From positions 1,516,220 through 1,580,219 of the forward strand of contig JBJMOW010000005.1 in assembly GCA_045803545.1 (NCBI GenBank): a stretch of DNA of 64,000 nucleotides, given 5' to 3'. Positions within the stretch are counted from its first letter, which is position 1, and each line of letters opens with the position of its first letter. Below, piece after piece: positions 1,834 through 45,873 of this stretch. The position numbers and the translations under genes were made by a program. The stretch is from Gemmatimonadaceae bacterium. GTDB lineage: Bacteria > Gemmatimonadota > Gemmatimonadetes > Gemmatimonadales > Gemmatimonadaceae. The notes under the pieces were generated by a model. That model was not told the origin of the DNA, did no database searches, and saw nothing but the letters and a program-made list of their open reading frames with translations.

Positions 1834-2196
1834 TTAGTTCGAGTCGCCCCGCAGTTTTTTCAGAAGACCGTGCAGCATCTTGCGGACATCGATGATGCGA
1901 GGGAGAAGGCTCGTGAAATCCTGCTCGGTCATCAGCTTAAGATCGCGAGCGAGTTGAACGTGTCCCTCGAGTTCGGTTGCTGAAGCAATGGCGTAACCGA
2001 GATAACGCGCAAACTCACGGGGACTCGTATGCGCGCTGCCCTCGACGATATTCGTCGGCACCGACATCGCGGCGCGCAAGAGTTGGTCGCGCACCGTGGC
2101 GCTACGAGTTCCGCGCATGCGCGCAGTGACTCGCTCCGCATCAATCGCGACCTGCAGCGCCGCCTCCCAGACACGAAGTTTCCTGAAGTCAGCCAC
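1834..2196 (-). CDS. Four-helix-bundle protein (23S rRNA IVP / Avd-like family)
   Basis: 120 aa with family motifs F.KL.VW, DQLLRAAMSVPTNIVEG, EFARYLGYAIASATEL and RKMLHGL. Confidence 0.92.
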   Translation of the reverse strand: MADFRKLRVWEAALQVAIDAERVTARMRGTRSATVRDQLLRAAMSVPTNIVEGSAHTSPREFARYLGYAIASATELEGHVQLARDLKLMTEQDFTSLLPRIIDVRKMLHGLLKKLRGDSN

Positions 2197-4198: not shown

Positions 4199-5607
4199 GA
4201 CAGGCTCCGCACGTCTGCGATCGCTCCGGTCACCGCGGTCGCCGCTGCTGTCAGCGGACTTGCCAGGAAAGTGCGGCCGCCTTTGCCCTGGCGTCCTTCG
4301 AAGTTGCGATTGCTGGTGCTAACCGCGCTCTGGCCCGGCGCGAGCTGATCGCCGTTCATCGCAATGCACATCGAGCAGCCTGCTTCACGCCATTCTGCGC
4401 CGGCTTCCTTGAACACTCGGTCGAGCCCTTCCGCTTCTGCCTGACTTTTGACATTGCGCGAGCCGGGCACGACCAGCATCCGCACTCCGGGTGCAACCCG
4501 ACGTCCACGCATTACCGTTGCCGCCTCGCGCAGATCGGAGATACGCGAGTTAGTACAGCTCCCCACGAACACCACGTCGACAGCGCGGCCGAGCAGTGCC
4601 TGCCCCGGCTCGAGCGCCATGTAGCGGAGCGCCTTGTCGAGATCGGCGCGCTCGGTCCCGCTCGCCGCAGAGTCGGGGTCAGGAACACGTCCGTCGATGG
4701 GAATCGCCATCGACGGGTTGGTGCCGAAAGTAATCATTGGAGCCAGGCTGTCTGCCCGCAGATTCAGCGTGCGATCGTACGACGCGTCATCGTCGCTGAC
4801 GAGTTGCCGCCAGCGATCGACCGCACCATCCCAGTCGCCGCCCGCCGGCGCAAACGGCCGGCCGGCTATGTACTCGGCAGTCGTGTCGTCGGGCGCAATG
4901 AGGCCGGCGCGCGCGCCTGCCTCGATCGACATGTTGCAGATGGTCATCCGGTTTTCCATCCCTAGCGCGCGAATCGCTGAACCGGTGTACTCGAGCACGT
5001 GTCCGGTTGCGCCCCCGACGCCGATCCTGGCGATGATGGCGAGGATGATGTCCTTTGCCGTAACCCCGGGAGGAAGCGTTCCATCGATGGACAGCTGCAT
5101 GCTGCGCGGCTTGCGCTGCAGCAGCGTCTGGGTTGCGAGAACGTAGCCCACTTCCGACGTCCCGATTCCAAACGCCAGCGCGCCAAACGCGCCGTGGGTG
5201 CTGGTGTGACTGTCACCGCAGACGATGGTCATGCCCGGCTGTGTAAGCCCCTGCTCCGGTCCGATGACGTGAACGATTCCCTGCCGACTGTCTTCGAGTC
5301 CGAACAGGCTAATGCCGAATTCGTCGCAGTTCGTCTCAAGCTGCGTGAGCTGCGCCGCCGCCTGGGAATCGAGCACCTGCAGACGGCCATGCGCCCGGGG
5401 CGTCGTCGGCGTCGAATGATCCATCGTCGCCAGCGTCAGCTCGGGTCGCCGCACCCCAACACCGCGACGCCGCAACTCGGCGAACGCCTGCGGCGACGTC
5501 ACCTCGTGCACGAGATGCAGATCGACGTAAAGTACCGCCGGCGTGCTCTCGGTCTCGGCCCGAGCGACGTGGTCGTCCCAAATCTTGTCGACGAGTGTTT
5601 GTGGCAA
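4195..5607 (-). CDS. leuC: 3-isopropylmalate dehydratase large subunit
   Basis: Motifs [34 protein letters not shown] and [12 protein letters not shown]. True start inferred at TTG 5607 (PQTLVDKIW); the in-frame extension upstream is translated repeat. Confidence 0.95.
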
Positions 5608-5732
5608 AGCGGGAAGCGGGAAGCGGGAAGCGGAAAGCGGGAAGCGGGAAACGGGCAACGGGCAACGGGCAACGGGCAACGGGCAACGGGCAACGGGCAA
5701 CGGGTTACGCGTTACGCGTTACGCGTAACGGA
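5607..5732. repeat. Heptamer tandem array (18 units: AAGCGGG-type x6, AAACGGG, CAACGGG x7, TTACGCG x3, TAACGGA)
   Basis: Read directly. Fills the space between the attenuator terminator and the leuC start codon. Confidence 0.95.
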
Positions 5733-5766
5733 AAAAAAAAGGCCCCTCGACATTTTCCGGGGGCCC
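5732..5766 (-). terminator. Intrinsic terminator of the leu attenuator
   Basis: Minus strand GGCCCCCGG-aaaatg-TCGAGGGGCC followed by 9 T. Confidence 0.88.
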
Positions 5767-15980: not shown

Positions 15981-16107
15981 GACTGAGGCCTGAGGACTAA
16001 GTGCATCGATCATCGCGGACTAAGTGAGGATTGCAGCCTAAAGCGCTTTAGTCATCAATCATCGATTAGTCAGCAATCACAGATGCCTTTAGTCATCAGG
16101 CCTCAGT
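15981..16107. repeat. Palindromic intergenic element (family A), full copy
   Basis: GACTGAG GCCTGAG GACTAAG TGCATC ... GATGCC TTTAGTC ATCAGGC CTCAGT. Homologous to 23549-23697 and 26954-27087. Confidence 0.85.
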
Positions 16108-16111
16108 TCAG

Positions 16112-20300: not shown

Positions 20301-22967
20301 TCAATGTCCCACGCGCCCTGCGGCGGCTTGATCCTCGATCAGCGCCTGGACCCGCGGATCCTTCATTCGCCATGCGAACTCGGGATCCTTCAACTCCGCG
20401 ATCGCATATCCGTTTGCGCTCGTAAAGCACCGCTCGAGAAATGGCATCATCGCCTCGGCGTCGCCCAGAAATCCGTAGACCGCTGCCTTGGTGCACGACA
20501 GCTGGATCGCCTCGACACCCCTCGGATACATCGCGATCGTCTGACTAACGCTCGCTTTCTCGAGCAGATCGAGCGCGGTCGTGCGATCGCCGTACAACGC
20601 AGCCAACCACGCCAATACCTCATACTGACCGCGGCGCACGTAGGCAGACTGGTTCGGATCGTCGGTCATCCGCTTCTCCAAACGCCACGCTGAATCGGCC
20701 AGCGTCCTCGCACGCTTGTAATCGCCACGGCTGGCGAACAGCTCCGCCTTCTCCGCATAAAAATTGACGCTGTCCAGAGCTGACCCGGGCGCGAACGACG
20801 ACAATGGCGTCGTTGCCAGCTCGTTCTGCAGCGCGGCGTCGCCGTGCCGCAGCATCTCACCGTCGGCTGCTCCGATTCTTCCGCCGCGCGCCCTCAGCTC
20901 TCGCACAGCGCGCGACACGCCTGCCACATCACCAACGTGTTCGGCGAGGGTCGCCGCGTGATAGATGGGACCCGTTCCAACAGGGTCCAGCGTTCGCTCC
21001 CGCGCCACCATGTTCGCGGCATCGCCGTATCGCCGCAGCGCGATCGCTGTCGCGAAGCTCATCGCGAGTACGTATTTCGACGCCGGCGCGAGCGGCAGGA
21101 TCCGCTTCACCGCTTCCCACGCCCCGGCGGAATCGCCGACGACGAGCAGTGCATGCTGCTCGTGGACGAGGAGCTCGATACTCGACGGATTCTCGCGCAA
21201 CGCGCGTCGCAGAATCGCCAGTGCTTCCGCAGGTCGATTGAATCCACGGAACGCGAGAGTAGCCACCGCGTTCGGCTGATTTGGATCGAGCTCCAATGCG
21301 CGACGCGCGACGGCCGCCGCGGAGTCGAGCATCTTCGTCCCGCCCGAGTACGACATGATCGCCAGCGCCTGCGACGCGAGGCCGACCGCGTCGGCATAAT
21401 TTGGATCGCGCCGATACGCGTACTCGAACTCGCGCAGGGCCTTCTCGTACTCGGCGTACGACGCGGTGGTGTTTTCCTCATAGATGCGCTTCCCACGCAC
21501 GACGGCGGCGAACGCTCCGGTGTCAGCCGTCGCGCGCATCGCCATCGTCGTCCGCTCGCGCGGCGCCATTGCCACGTCCAGCGCCTCGGCTACTCTCGTC
21601 GCGACGCGGGACTGAATGGTGAATGGATCCGCGGGCGAGACGATCTCCGGCTCACCGGCCCACTGCGTCGTCGCGTCGGACACGCGTATCAGCTCGGGCG
21701 TCACCCGTACCAGCGGTTGATTGTCGGCGCCCTTGGCCCATCGCACCGACGCGCGCAGCAGGTAATCGGCGCCCAGCGATTTGCCCAGTTGTTGTACGCT
21801 CGTGCCGGAGGAAGTCGCCAATGACGACACGCTCTTGCGATCGATCACGCTCAAGCCCTCGAGTCGCGCCAGCTTGCCGCTGATTGCGTCGCGGAGCCCG
21901 TCAGCGAAGCTGGGATCGGCGCCGTCACCTGCACTCTCGAATGGCAGCACTGCGATTAGCGGCGGGTGATCGTCCGCTGCGGATCGCGCCCGCCAGATCG
22001 CTCCACCACCGAGTACGAGCGCGACGATGAGCGCGGTGACGAGCACGCCGAACCGGCGGCGCGATGGAATCGCCGCGCGGGGGATTCGAATCCGCGATGG
22101 ATTGTCGATTGCCGAGAGCAGCTCGACTCCTGACGCCGGCCGATCTGACTTCTGTTTCGACAGGCACACCGATACGAGATCGGAAATCGCGCGCGGGACT
22201 TTCGAGCCGGAGTTAGAGAGTGGTCGAGGGGTGTCTGACATCTGCGCCGTCAGCAGATTCTGCGGCGACGAGATGTGATCGCCGAATGGATGCTTCCCCG
22301 AGATCAGCTCGTAGGCGACGATGCCCCACGCATAGACGTCCGCGCGCTGGTCAGTTCCCGGATCACCGGCCGCCTGTTCCGGCGCCATGTACATCGGCGT
22401 GCCGACGTTGTCGCCCGGCTGGGTTATCTGCGCCGCGCTTTGCCTGGTGAGAGGAAGCGCTTCTTTCCTCGCCGCCGAGACGGCCTTGGCGATCCCGAAA
22501 TCGGTGACGACCGCGGTGCCTTCGCTCAGCAGAATGTTCTCGGGCTTGATGTCGCGGTGGACGATTCCCTGCCTGTGCGCGTAGGCAAGGGCGGCGGCGA
22601 CATCGCGCAGAACGGCCAGACTCTCGTCGAGCGGAATCGTCCCTTTTCTGATCCGATCGCGCAGCGACTGTCCGCGCACGAACGGCATCGTATAGTAGGG
22701 ATATCCTCCCGCCGTCTGACCCGAGCTGAGCACCGGCAGGATGTGCGGCTCCTGGAGCGCTGCGGCGAGCTTTACCTCGCGCGCAAATCGCGCCGCCGAG
22801 AAGGCGAAGGTAAGCTCAGGTGGCAGGACTTTGACGACGATCTCGCGGCCGAGCGCTTCGTCGCGGGCGACGAAGACGCGCGCCATTCCGCCCGCGAGCA
22901 GCTCTTTGGTGATGGTGTAGTGGCTGCTCCCGAATTCCTGCTGGATTTGGTCGTAAAGGTCGTCCAA
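20301..22967 (-). CDS. Hanks-type Ser/Thr protein kinase with TM, TolB_N-like and TPR domains
   Basis: Motifs GGMARVF, HRDIKPEN, DFG and GTPMYMAPE, then a TM helix, IAVLPF and TPR-like helices. Confidence 0.93.
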   Translation of the reverse strand: MDDLYDQIQQEFGSSHYTITKELLAGGMARVFVARDEALGREIVVKVLPPELTFAFSAARFAREVKLAAALQEPHILPVLSSGQTAGGYPYYTMPFVRGQSLRDRIRKGTIPLDESLAVLRDVAAALAYAHRQGIVHRDIKPENILLSEGTAVVTDFGIAKAVSAARKEALPLTRQSAAQITQPGDNVGTPMYMAPEQAAGDPGTDQRADVYAWGIVAYELISGKHPFGDHISSPQNLLTAQMSDTPRPLSNSGSKVPRAISDLVSVCLSKQKSDRPASGVELLSAIDNPSRIRIPRAAIPSRRRFGVLVTALIVALVLGGGAIWRARSAADDHPPLIAVLPFESAGDGADPSFADGLRDAISGKLARLEGLSVIDRKSVSSLATSSGTSVQQLGKSLGADYLLRASVRWAKGADNQPLVRVTPELIRVSDATTQWAGEPEIVSPADPFTIQSRVATRVAEALDVAMAPRERTTMAMRATADTGAFAAVVRGKRIYEENTTASYAEYEKALREFEYAYRRDPNYADAVGLASQALAIMSYSGGTKMLDSAAAVARRALELDPNQPNAVATLAFRGFNRPAEALAILRRALRENPSSIELLVHEQHALLVVGDSAGAWEAVKRILPLAPASKYVLAMSFATAIALRRYGDAANMVARERTLDPVGTGPIYHAATLAEHVGDVAGVSRAVRELRARGGRIGAADGEMLRHGDAALQNELATTPLSSFAPGSALDSVNFYAEKAELFASRGDYKRARTLADSAWRLEKRMTDDPNQSAYVRRGQYEVLAWLAALYGDRTTALDLLEKASVSQTIAMYPRGVEAIQLSCTKAAVYGFLGDAEAMMPFLERCFTSANGYAIAELKDPEFAWRMKDPRVQALIEDQAAAGRVGH

Positions 22968-23002
22968 GGAGCCCTTTGAGGCTGGCGACCAAATGTAGGG
23001 AC

Positions 23003-23050
23003 GGGAGGCGGGAGGCGGGAGGTGACTGAGGGCCGATGACTAAGGGCATC
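23003..23050. repeat. GGGAGG[CT] x3 fused in register to a 28-bp left arm of family A
   Basis: GGGAGGC GGGAGGC GGGAGGT GACTGAG GGCCGAT GACTAAG GGCATC. 23023-23050 matches 23549-23576 at 27/28. Confidence 0.9.
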
Positions 23051-23114
23051 GGCCCGCAGTCTTATCCGTTTAGCAACGGTGTGATTGGCTGGGCGTCAAA
23101 GGGGTCCGTGGTTT

Positions 23115-23555
23115 ATGGCGACCTCAGCGCATCTTCGCGCAATGTCGCATTTCGGGCCGCCCATTTCGCACGAGACGGCGAACGATCCTCTCTTCCGGAT
23201 GCGAGCCTACTCGCTGGCGGCTGACCTGGTCAAGTTGGCTTGGGAAGACGCGAAGAGCCTGAGCGCTGAGGCTGTGAGCGAGCGCATCGCGGGTCAGCTG
23301 TACGCGGCGGTGAATTCCATCACTGCGAATATTGGGGAAGGGTACTCGCGCAGCTCAGGAAAAGACCGAGCGCGCTTTTTCGAGTACGCACTCGGATCTG
23401 TGCGCGAGAGCATGAGTTGGTACCAGGGCGCGCGGCCAGTGCTGGGAGATGTCGTGCGCGGCCGACTCGACTCTCTGGAGGAAATTCGGCGGATGCTCAT
23501 CGCCATCATTCCCAGGGAGAGAGGTGCTGGTATTCGCCGTAGAGCGTCTGACTGA
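23115..23555 (+). CDS. Four-helix-bundle protein (IVP/Avd-like), second divergent copy
   Basis: Motif QLYAAVNSITANIGEGYSRSSGKDRARFFEYALGSVRE. Start uncertain (ATG 23115 or 23142). Stop codon lies inside the repeat. Confidence 0.9.
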   Translation: MATSAHLRAMSHFGPPISHETANDPLFRMRAYSLAADLVKLAWEDAKSLSAEAVSERIAGQLYAAVNSITANIGEGYSRSSGKDRARFFEYALGSVRESMSWYQGARPVLGDVVRGRLDSLEEIRRMLIAIIPRERGAGIRRRASD

Positions 23556-23697
23556 GGGCCGATGACTAAGAGCATCTATGGTTGCTGACTAATCGATGAG
23601 CGAGGACAATCGAGGATTAGGGCCGTTGTCCTCGATTGTCCTCAATTCTCACTTAGTCCGCGATGATCGATGCCGTTAGTCATCGGCCCTCGGTCAG
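23549..23697. repeat. Palindromic intergenic element (family A), full copy
   Basis: TGACTGAGGGCCGATGACTAAGAGCATC ... GATGCCGTTAGTCATCGGCCCTCGGTCA terminal inverted repeats, with an inner GAGGACAATCGAGGA/TCCTCGATTGTCCTC stem. Confidence 0.9.
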
Positions 23698-23746
23698 CAG
23701 ATCCCCTTCCCCGTCTATAGATTGCGAAAGCCAATTGGATGCATCG

Positions 23747-24076
23747 ATGTCAGATCGGGAAGTCGCCAGAGCAACAGCAAAATCACACATCACGCGTGAG
23801 ACCACACGCGAGTTCGACGTAGCGCTGCACGGTGCGGCGACGTCCAGCATCGAGTCAATGGCGGTGCTTCGCAGCGCCGTTTGCAGTTGTGTCAACTCAA
23901 TGAGAGATGGAGACGTCGGCATCGTTGAAATGATTCTGGCGATGAAGACGTGCGCGCTCGATAGCGCTGCGAGATACCAGCCGGAGTTCGACGAGATGCC
24001 GGTCTCGAGTGTCAACACATTGATGGATCAAATCGTAAAGTGGGCAATCGCGGAGTACTACACGACGCGGTCTTGA
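23747..24076 (+). CDS. Hypothetical helical protein (LRSAV...W.I.EYY family)
   Basis: Start moved to ATG 23747, outside the repeat. Paralog of the next ORF. Confidence 0.7.
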   Translation: MSDREVARATAKSHITRETTREFDVALHGAATSSIESMAVLRSAVCSCVNSMRDGDVGIVEMILAMKTCALDSAARYQPEFDEMPVSSVNTLMDQIVKWAIAEYYTTRS

Positions 24077-25583: not shown

Positions 25584-26959
25584 ACATCGATCCGGACGAA
25601 GAGCGAGAGTTGCAGACTGCGGCGCTGCGGACTGCTACCAGCGTCGTGATGGCGCGGCACCGCGCCGAGCAGGAGCGCGATCGCGCGCGCGCCGAGGCGG
25701 AGGCAGCGCGTAGCGAGCTCGAGGCCCTGAACCGAATCGGAACCGCGCTGGCTTCGCAGCTCGACGTCGAGAAAATCGTGCAGACGGTAACCGATGCGGC
25801 GACCAAGCTGACCCGCGCTCAATTCGGCGCGTTCTTCTACAACGTCGTTGACAAACAGGGCGAGAAACTCACGCTCTTCACATTGTCGGGCGCACCACGG
25901 GAAGCTTTCGAAGGTTTTGGTCATCCGCGCGCGACGCCGATTTTCGCTCCGACTTTCTATGGCACAGCCATCGTGCGGAGCGACGACATCACCAAGGACC
26001 CAAGCTACGGCCAGTGGGAACCCTTTCACGGAATGCCACCAGGTCATCTGCCGGTGCGCAGCTATCTCGCAGTGCCTGTGACGTCCCGTACGGGCGATGT
26101 CCTGGGAGGCCTCTTCTTCGCGCACTCGAAAGTGGGCGTCTTCGACGAACGGGCCGAGCGATTGGTGCAAGGGATCGCCGGCTGGGCGGCGATTGCGATG
26201 GACAACGCGCGCCTCTATGAAGCCGAACGAAGTGCGCGAGCGCAGGCCGAGGTCGCCAACGAGGCGAAGTCTGAGTTCCTCGCCAACATGTCGCACGAAT
26301 TGCGCACACCGCTGAACGCGATCGGCGGCTACGCGGATCTGATGATCGGCGAGGTTCGCGGCCCGATAACAGAAGCACAGCACGCCGATCTCGAGCGGAT
26401 CAAGCGCAACCAGCAGCATCTACTCGGCCTGATCAACGACATTCTCAACTTTGCCAAAGTCGAAGCAGGTAGCGTCCAATTCGATCCGATCGAAGTGTCG
26501 ATGAACGAACGCCTCGGAGAGCTGGAGGCGCTGATCGCACCGCAGGTGCAGCAGAAGGGATTGCACTACGAGTATATCTGCTGCGATTCGAAGTTCACCG
26601 CTTACACCGATCCGGATCGGTTGCAGCAGATCCTGCTCAACCTTCTCTCGAACGCGATCAAGTTCACGCCGGTGGGCGGAAAGATCGCCGTGGTGTGCAG
26701 AGCGACCAAGGATTTCATGAAGGTCCGGGTAACGGACACTGGACCCGGCATCCCGCGCGACAAACTCGATCACATCTTCGAGCCTTTCGTCCAACTTGCG
26801 CGCGGCCGTTCGGCGGCCGTCGTCGGAACCGGGCTGGGGCTCGCGATCAGTCGCGACCTCGCGCGGGCGATGGGGGGTGATCTCACCGTCCATAGCAGGG
26901 TGGGACGGGGATCGACGTTTATACTGAGTTTGCCGAGAGGTCGGACGCGGGAAGATTGA
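25580..26959 (+). CDS. GAF-domain sensor histidine kinase
   Basis: GAF domain ([16 protein letters not shown]...GGLFF), [24 protein letters not shown] and GTGLGL. Confidence 0.93.
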
Positions 26960-27087
26960 GGCCCGAGGACTAAGTGCATCGATCACCGAGGATTAAGTGA
27001 GGGCCGAGTACAACCGAGGATCCTCGATGGTCTGCAATCCTCACTTAATCAGCAATCATAGATGCCCTTGGTCCTCCGCCCTCAGTC
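26954..27087. repeat. Palindromic intergenic element (family A), full copy
   Basis: GATTGAG GCCCGAG GACTAAG TGCATC ... GATGCC CTTGGTC CTCCGCC CTCAGTC. Overlaps the kinase stop and lies between convergent genes. Confidence 0.85.
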
Positions 27088-39774: not shown

Positions 39775-39985
39775 AGCTGCGGACTGAGGGCTTAGAAGCG
39801 CAATACCGCACTGGTAGCTAATAGCAGCAGGCTGTTAGCTAATGGCTGCCTGCAACCAGAGAGATCTCATGGCATAGGGGCGAACAGAACGCCTTTCCTC
39901 TGACTCTAGCGCTATCTGTCCGTCGCCTGCAGCGAGTAGCCATCGGCTGCCATCAGCTGCCAGCGCGGTACTTATCAGTTCAGTC
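39775..39985. repeat. ~210-bp palindromic element (family B), copy 1
   Basis: Reverse-complement homolog of 42584-42806. Confidence 0.85.
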
Positions 39986-42583: not shown

Positions 42584-42806
42584 AGCTGCGGAGCAAGGAC
42601 TGAACGGATAAGTACCGCGCTGATAGCTGATGGCAGCTAGCTGCTAGCTATTGGCTGCAAGCGTCGGGACAGGTCGGTGTTGATCTAGAGGAAACGCGTT
42701 CAGTCCGCGTTCATGCCATGAGATCTGTCTGGTTGCAGGCGGCCATTAGCTATCAGCCTGCTGCCATCAGCTACAAGCGCGGGTTTTCAGTCCTCAGTCC
42801 GCAGCT
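42584..42806. repeat. ~220-bp palindromic element (family B), copy 2
   Basis: Ends AGCTGCGGA/TCCGCAGCT. Heptamer-periodic arms (GCTGATA GCTGATG GCAGCTA GCTGCTA GCTATTG). Lies between convergent genes. Confidence 0.85.
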
Positions 42807-44055: not shown

Positions 44056-44059
44056 TGAG

Positions 44060-44118
44060 GACCGAGGGCTTGGACTAACGGCATCGACAATCGCTGACTA
44101 ATTGAGAATCGAGGACGA
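44060..44118. repeat. Family A half-element
   Basis: GACCGAGGGCTTGGACTAACGGCATCGACAATCGCTGACTAATTGAGAATCGAGGAC. Confidence 0.7.
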
Positions 44119-44137
44119 CTGTTGGGATGGTGAATCC

Positions 44138-44296
44138 GAGTTTCGAGCTAAGTCCGAGATACGAACCTACTGCGAAATACGAACCTAGTGCGAAATACGA
44201 ACCTACTGCGAAATACGAGCTCTTTGCATTTCAAAGCGCGTCCAACGTGGCTCGCATCTCGAAATAGGCTCGTAATTCGGTCTTAGCTCGCACCTC
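44138..44296. repeat. Imperfect palindrome containing an 18-bp tandem repeat (CGAAATACGAACCTA[CG]TG, 3.5 copies at 44155-44217)
   Basis: Units start at 44155, 44173, 44191 and 44209. CGAGCTAAG.CCGA..TACGA.CCTA pairs with TAGGCTCGTAATTCGGTCTTAGCTCG. Confidence 0.85.
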
Positions 44297-45810: not shown

Positions 45811-45823
45811 CCGCGGCCTGGTT

Positions 45824-45873
45824 GACCGCCCGAGGACAAACGGCATCTATGATCGCGCACTAAGTGAGGATCG
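45824..45873. repeat. Family A half-element
   Basis: GCCCGAGGACAAACGGCATCTATGATCGCGCACTAAGTGAGGATCG. Its GAGGA may serve as the RBS for 45881. Confidence 0.7.

Follow-up and report, generated by a model that had tools for sequence, protein, structure and literature searches.

Integrative elements with an att core or a target-site duplication carry their cargo between direct repeats, and their empty sites keep one repeat. The ORF-bearing intervening sequences (IVS) of 23S rRNA, of the S23p type, hold the ORF between inverted repeats whose 28-bp stem has a single mismatch and a single bulge. The part of PMC4990558 that deals with them leaves open their origin, spread and mobility, together with the role of the four-helix-bundle protein; the S23p family member Xcc0516 is stated there to form a homopentameric ring. 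REPIN/RAYT systems place many extragenic hairpin doublets in each genome, in several families, each linked with a single-copy gene (for a tyrosine transposase), and at sites that are partly inherited (PMC3337134, in the part relevant here). PF05635 is described as Avd-like in the relevant part of PMC10053308, Avd belonging to diversity-generating retroelements (DGRs). The parts of PMC5524665 that are relevant here hold annotation tables only.

The locus described here lies in a 64,000-nt stretch of DNA (the window, to which coordinates without a contig prefix refer) from the genome that we call G000. It reads hairpin–gene–hairpin, a layout also present in relatives, and lies between host genes K and D; X and Y denote the neighbor genes of a second locus. 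The hairpins belong to a dispersed family, family A. The features are as follows.

20301 to 22967, minus strand: kinase gene K (Ser/Thr kinase with TPR repeats, 888 aa; PF00069, 135 bits), the left host gene, outside the element
23003 to 23022, plus strand: GGGAGGC heptamer run abutting the left copy; comparable runs abut other family A copies
23023 to 23050, plus strand: left 28-mer, the outer end of the left family A hairpin and a 27/29 inverted match to 23669–23697, the far end of the right element
23024 to 23061, no strand: 38-bp mini-hairpin (the stub), probably the left family A hairpin minus ∼108 nt of its interior; 15-bp stem (14/15), 8-nt loop, junction at CATC(G)
23062 to 23141, plus strand: leader from the stub to the likely start codon, conserved in metagenome contig L041
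23142 to 23555, plus strand: four-helix-bundle gene, TIGR02436/PF05635, 137 aa; likely ATG at 23142, stop two codons into the right hairpin
23549 to 23576, plus strand: right 28-mer, the left end of the full right hairpin, matching the left 28-mer
23550 to 23695, no strand: full family A imperfect palindrome, 146 bp, arms ∼77% complementary
23663 to 24076, plus strand: ORF D, the right host ORF, outside the element, with no Pfam or NCBIfam family
15981 to 16108, no strand: family A hairpin without a gene (fold and similarity)
26954 to 27087, no strand: family A hairpin without a gene (similarity)

The cassette resembles an ORF-bearing IVS in layout, yet it is not one, being outside rRNA. The protein family is the same and the ORF sits inside inverted repeats (27/29 outer, 14/15 inner), but unlike the IVS of PMC4990558, as far as that source describes them, it lies between protein genes, each flank is itself a hairpin, and the arms recur without the gene some 25 times. 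The traits of REPIN/RAYT given above are shared, but the flanked gene encodes a four-helix bundle rather than a tyrosine transposase, and the gene itself changes site and orientation (compare the relevant part of PMC3337134). Profile searches of G000, which is 93% complete, gave 0 matches to Y1 transposases (Y1_Tnp, PF01797) and 0 to RVT_1 (PF00078), the two families that our search for copying machinery covered. The likeness to Avd comes from PF05635 and from a weak match of the predicted model to chains of a DGR complex (PMC10053308, in part). Unlike DGRs, however, G000 has no RVT_1 and no template/variable repeat pair was seen; arm variation is not confined to adenines, the A columns being conserved among 55 arms (at least 52/55) while the C, G and T columns vary. 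The cargo lies between direct repeats (27/28) as in att or target-duplication elements, but it includes no recombinase, what repeats is the terminus of a dispersed palindrome, and solo hairpins have no target duplication. Family A is like a MITE in its terminal inverted repeats and lack of coding capacity, but not in target-site duplication, which was rejected for the solos: one of 21 elements has at least 4 nt, in line with the null (2.6%). The literature within reach of our search, which most subscription journals fall outside, held no description of such cassettes outside rRNA; a term search of the main text of 10.64898/2026.10.21.760802 gave 0 matches, and its supplements could bear on novelty.

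A preliminary description of this DNA had read the locus as a four-helix-bundle gene between direct repeats, and much of that stands. The repeats at 23023–23050 and 23549–23576 match at 27 of 28 positions with a spacing of 526, the GGGAGGC run precedes the left copy, the TGA of the ORF (23553–23555) falls within the right copy, and that copy extends into a full, imperfect palindrome with a fold z of −9.9 (folded as 23545–23694). The pair was also said to be closer than most family A arms, and it is, though not uniquely so: 67 of 1456 inter-element arm pairs (4.6%) differ at no more than 1 of 27 bases. The left copy, on the other hand, is not the isolated arm that had been described. Its continuation, CATCGGCCCGCAGTC, reverse-complements the first 15 bases of the copy (14/15); together they fold into a 38-bp hairpin with z = −7.2, equaled by 0 of 200 shuffles. 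The predicted RNA fold of the locus favors two local hairpins over a single enclosing stem. ORF D as listed begins within the right hairpin, and its true start is probably further on. Scanning 22940–23780 for sigma-70 promoters and intrinsic terminators gave 0 and 0 matches; an Rfam scan of 22900–23800 returned three weak rows (mir-4782 twice, SOX2OT), far under their gathering scores and taken as chance, and no rRNA match. The notion that an att site supplied the stop codon was rejected, relatives stopping before or inside the arm at varied places.

The nearest relative of the locus is on L041, where the gene is 97.6% identical over 293 nt (96% aa) and a full hairpin (∼146-bp family A) is joined directly to the same leader. 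Aligned to it, the window shows 27 nt, a single 108-nt gap, then 11 nt and the leader. One sequencing-run contig, 96% identical, matches 23047–23616 and leaves the window at exactly 23047, the predicted stub junction, with 19 unmatched letters beyond (not displayed). Another 38-bp stub, gene-free, is present in G000 at C2:193393; the orthologous position holds full hairpins in G014 and G078, a palindrome of another family in G090 and no palindrome in G106. A third sits before the gene in L151. Searching the genus (109 genomes) with two mismatches allowed gave only the two G000 stubs, that of L151 differing in sequence and so being missed; an exact search for the stub pattern in genome contigs gave 0 matches. 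The alignments make it quite probable that the left hairpin shrank from ∼146 to 38 bases, by slippage or a template switch at the CATC(G) microhomology, and the stub is probably a hairpin remnant rather than a target duplication. Fold-back artifacts do occur at contig ends of other loci (L148, L037), but an assembly or sequencing artifact at the hairpin is a very improbable source of the stub: it stands mid-contig, two further 38-bp stubs are known, and 22536–23315 is covered by a run contig with no differences, 23382–23659 by a second run contig. The first of these indicates that the stub is real DNA in at least one run, although the runs may be the source sample. At L148 and L037 the inverted repeats extend into flanking genes; they were set aside as cassette features, being probable fold-back misassemblies, a hazard for calling cassette orientation.

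In L041 the gene runs the other way and the hairpin is connected to ORF D; the kinase side is absent from the contig. Either the inversion is true or the assembly has flipped, and inverting the gene alone in a window-like allele would lead to the same arrangement. The latter is relevant to the model of the preliminary description, in which a 526-bp circle of stub and gene entered a resident hairpin through a crossover in its 28-mer and duplicated the 28-mer. Its arithmetic fits, removal of 526 bp leaving one intact element; the two copies agree marginally better as direct repeats (27/28) than as inverted ones (27/29), G014 has a gene-less site, and L041 could have arisen when the gene alone was later inverted between the inner inverted repeats of 15 bp. 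We nevertheless consider this model improbable. A 28-bp target or att copy predicts a short left copy in sister alleles, but L041 has the full hairpin, to which the left copy aligns with one 108-nt gap (inversion or assembly flip being possible there), the run contig parts from the window at the stub junction, and the same 38-bp stub stands gene-free at a site that is full-length in relatives. The four-helix-bundle ORF is the sole ORF with a family match in the 526 bp, and ORF calling with Pfam and NCBIfam profiles found no integrase or transposase there. Contigs of four low-depth runs contain no joint skipping the 526 nt and no circle junction. As for the empty allele proposed earlier as a check, the K-D site of G014 is gene-less; a base-exact allele was not found, the G014 hairpin being of another subfamily and without a GGGAGGC run.

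The flanks of homologous loci explain why a direct repeat is seen. We scored 55 loci (all 30 of one set, the best 14 of 80, and 11 of 20), of which three without a flank were dropped. Inverted repeats flank 49 of the remaining 52, compared with 227 of 2652 swapped pairs, some loci being mutually orthologous and non-independent; the three under threshold are the window locus, L151 and the mis-anchored, truncated L019. Direct repeats occur at 10 of the 52 loci, each of which is bordered on one side or both by a whole palindrome. Two palindromes that share ends always yield both direct and inverted repeats. The earlier expectation of similar direct repeats at other family members is borne out to that extent, but 0 of 52 loci have them without a whole palindrome, which speaks against both the circle and a target or att duplication. 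L036 is flanked by palindromes yet falls under the direct-repeat threshold. It follows that a direct repeat next to a palindromic element is not necessarily the scar of an integration.

The same survey largely refutes the independent insertion of two family A copies on both sides of an ordinary gene. It is true that 4.6% of unrelated arm pairs are equally close, but inverted repeats flank 8 of 8 family genes of G000 and 49 of 52 close homologs, and there are only ∼27 family A sites in 3.7 Mb; this explanation has hardly any probability left. The layouts range from arm–gene–arm through arm–gene–hairpin (L147, L149, L150) to hairpin–gene–hairpin (L144, L146, L152, L042, L044, L048), and mirrored arrays of a 41-bp unit flank the gene in L037–L040. 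The link between gene and inverted repeat is not universal, since it is seen in 2 of 17 more distant homologs (L049–L065; 42–60% aa). The hairpin–gene–hairpin cassette of L048 has a gene with an internal deletion; the orthologous L044 is intact. Immediately upstream of related Ser/Thr kinase genes in other genomes there is often a whole cassette or a palindrome, of one family or another (L003, L004, L005, L044, L048, L149, L150).

Family A in G000 amounts to 55 arms at up to 7 mismatches, or 27 BLAST sites, with ∼21 full elements delimited. Arms are found in 23 of 109 genomes (G070 and G072 of the 23 are unpublished, as are other genomes in the denominators). A homolog scoring at least 195 bits is present in 14 genomes, all 14 of which carry family A arms, and in 0 of 86 arm-free genomes, these genomes being kin and non-independent. 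Three of the remaining nine arm-positive genomes (G010, G011, G131) have truncated or broken copies of the gene. Gene and family A hairpins travel together. A boundary recurs at GCATC, 27 nt from the hairpin end: the 28-mer repeat, the stubs and three terminal tandem duplications end there or within a base. The duplications, at C4:228286, C4:247886 and C2:905903–905962 of G000, are family A elements with a second terminal 27-mer head to tail after a 3–5 nt spacer, and L016 and L147 have similar terminal duplicates. By eye, the hairpin interior lies in opposite orientations in different strains when judged against its ends or flanks (L044 versus L048, L041 versus window 23550–23695), a flip-flop pattern.

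Among 27 other genomes (of 109) that match D, only G014 preserves K-D synteny. Its K ortholog is 87% identical (aa), and the order there is kinase, hairpin, ORF D, without the gene. Eleven homologs of the gene (7 genomes, 4 metagenome contigs; 72–87% aa) instead adjoin X, which encodes a glycoside hydrolase, or Y, which encodes a small membrane protein, both neighbors being retained only in G095 and G097. X and Y are adjacent in G000 with a gene-less family A hairpin between them (C4:1373837–1373983), and beside Y in G014 stands hairpin–gene–hairpin. The filled and gene-less states are swapped between the two genomes at the two loci. DNA and protein trees place the window gene as sister to the Y-linked gene of G014, inside a group that is mostly X- or Y-linked (ultrafast bootstrap 70 for DNA, 84 for protein); the gene at the X-Y site of G097 comes from another clade. 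From this we consider it likely that the gene relocated to K-D from X-Y. The gene points to Y at three of the linked loci and to X at eight. The longest exact arm match is only 17–20 bp in G095, G125 and G128, and flipping is therefore at least partly real. Mobility, as claimed in the preliminary description, is partly upheld in that the gene appears and disappears at family A sites, absent from K-D in G014 and with its nearest relatives at X-Y, which is hairpin-only in G000; the base-exact allele and the circle were unseen. The locus supplies dated natural states of such a gene outside rRNA, namely occupied and unoccupied sites that are swapped, a reversed gene, and arms that have collapsed.

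The hairpins themselves are often resident. Twenty-four G014 sites could be mapped, drawn from 30 loci of 63 matches, and 12 carry family A sequence at the orthologous G000 site, against a background of 2 in 400 random windows. L038 is a second filled site with a solo hairpin at its G000 counterpart. Yet of the 15 junctions in G000 whose orthologs are filled, only 2 contain a family A hairpin; the other 13 have none, several being clean, so whole cassettes also enter fresh sites. An alternative history is that the whole cassette, arms and gene together, entered a clean K-D site in the common ancestor of G000 and G014, after which G014 lost the gene there and G000 lost that at X-Y; the left hairpin would still have collapsed, and the gene would never have hopped into a resident hairpin. 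Besides the clean sites, this history is supported by the X-Y hairpin of G000 not being especially close to the right hairpin (84/110, in a range of 65–95 over 20 elements) and by divergence from G014 at four-fold sites, which is 0.66 for the gene compared with 0.48 for X, 0.49 for Y and 0.38 for K. The higher value makes an older paralogy possible, though it is equal to that of D (0.66). Two independent gene losses and a duplication near the split are demanded, however, the gene must still have moved from X-Y, and a resident hairpin is plausible given that about half of the G014 family A sites are common to G000. We regard it as unlikely, if a genuine competitor.

Gene X (L173:56–1180, C4:1372755–1373879 in G000) extends into the family A hairpin, within which it terminates. 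X and Y are apart in G014 and G079, each ending at a family A hairpin or arm (L144, L179, L150, L175). This suggests rearrangement at the hairpins, and family A hairpins may be breakpoints of genome rearrangement.

The protein was correctly described as a four-helix bundle. It scores 58.6 bits with TIGR02436 (cut-off 24) and 47.5 with PF05635 (33.8). ATG 23142 is the likely start (MSHFG, common to close relatives), longer in-frame starts lying at 23085 and 23115. The predicted structure has four long helices (pLDDT 85.7). The top 10 Foldseek rows are all 2rld and 2gsc (TM 0.61–0.69, best E 1.3e-3), with 2gsc also matched by sequence (E 8e-4), and the model conforms to a predicted S23p-type four-helix fold. 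Against the chains of the DGR complex (PDB 8ub7/8ub8) TM is 0.62–0.63 with a weak E of 0.55–0.64. Comparison with L041 gives dN/dS ∼0.12 (0.009/0.073), synonymous sites being saturated for other relatives, and by this measure the gene is under purifying selection. G000 holds eight genes of the family, one split over two frames, and the inverted repeats that flank all eight are 29–166 bp long, each of its own sequence. The arms of five of six other cassettes tested are also present elsewhere in G000 as gene-less palindromes.

On balance we favor a history in which the gene sits between two dispersed family A hairpins, the left one likely collapsed from ∼146 to 38 bases, and likely reached its site from a different locus marked by a hairpin, with hairpins recombining through host functions. 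The route could run as follows, though we would give it rather less than an even chance. Recombination between like-oriented hairpin ends would release a circle of hairpin and gene and leave one hairpin behind; the circle would recombine into a different hairpin; and recombination between opposed ends would flip the gene. Host recombination or template switching might also collapse a hairpin to a stub. The arrival of new hairpins or cassettes at clean sites lies outside this route. Here the protein could perhaps play a part, which we put forward with some doubt by analogy with Avd: a predicted non-catalytic, Avd-like bundle might bind hairpin nucleic acid and help a host enzyme copy the hairpin to new sites. 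Most likely it would bind its own hairpin and recruit the host enzyme.

More tentatively still, genes for four-helix bundles of the IVS/Avd-like kind and their hairpin families might together constitute a putative transposase-free, two-part mobile system. The protein would chaperone the copying of its own hairpin to new sites and the scattered hairpins would act as landing pads; the gene would excise as a hairpin-bearing circle, re-enter another hairpin, flip and swap alleles, cuts or template switches would cluster at GCATC, 27 nt in from the hairpin end, and rRNA intervening sequences would be landings in 23S genes. Mobility becomes a testable claim with defined substrates: the 146-bp hairpin, the 38-bp stub and the 137-aa protein.

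Several related arrangements were seen elsewhere. Another four-helix-bundle gene (∼1852–2172, minus strand) lies at 1710–2450 of the window between inverted GGGTAAC/GGGCAAC heptamer arrays, and a related array without a gene is found at 5600–5745, 3.3 kb from that cassette. The gene in two frames, at C6:61428–61746 of G000, is still within 70-bp inverted repeats, and there are five gene-less palindromes of its family. Diverged family A-like sequence occurs at 44058–44208 and 45820–45869 of the window, the first adjoining an 18-bp tandem repeat, and a 138-nt inverted repeat (77%) has its copies 2.7 kb apart at 39784–39921 and 42667–42804.
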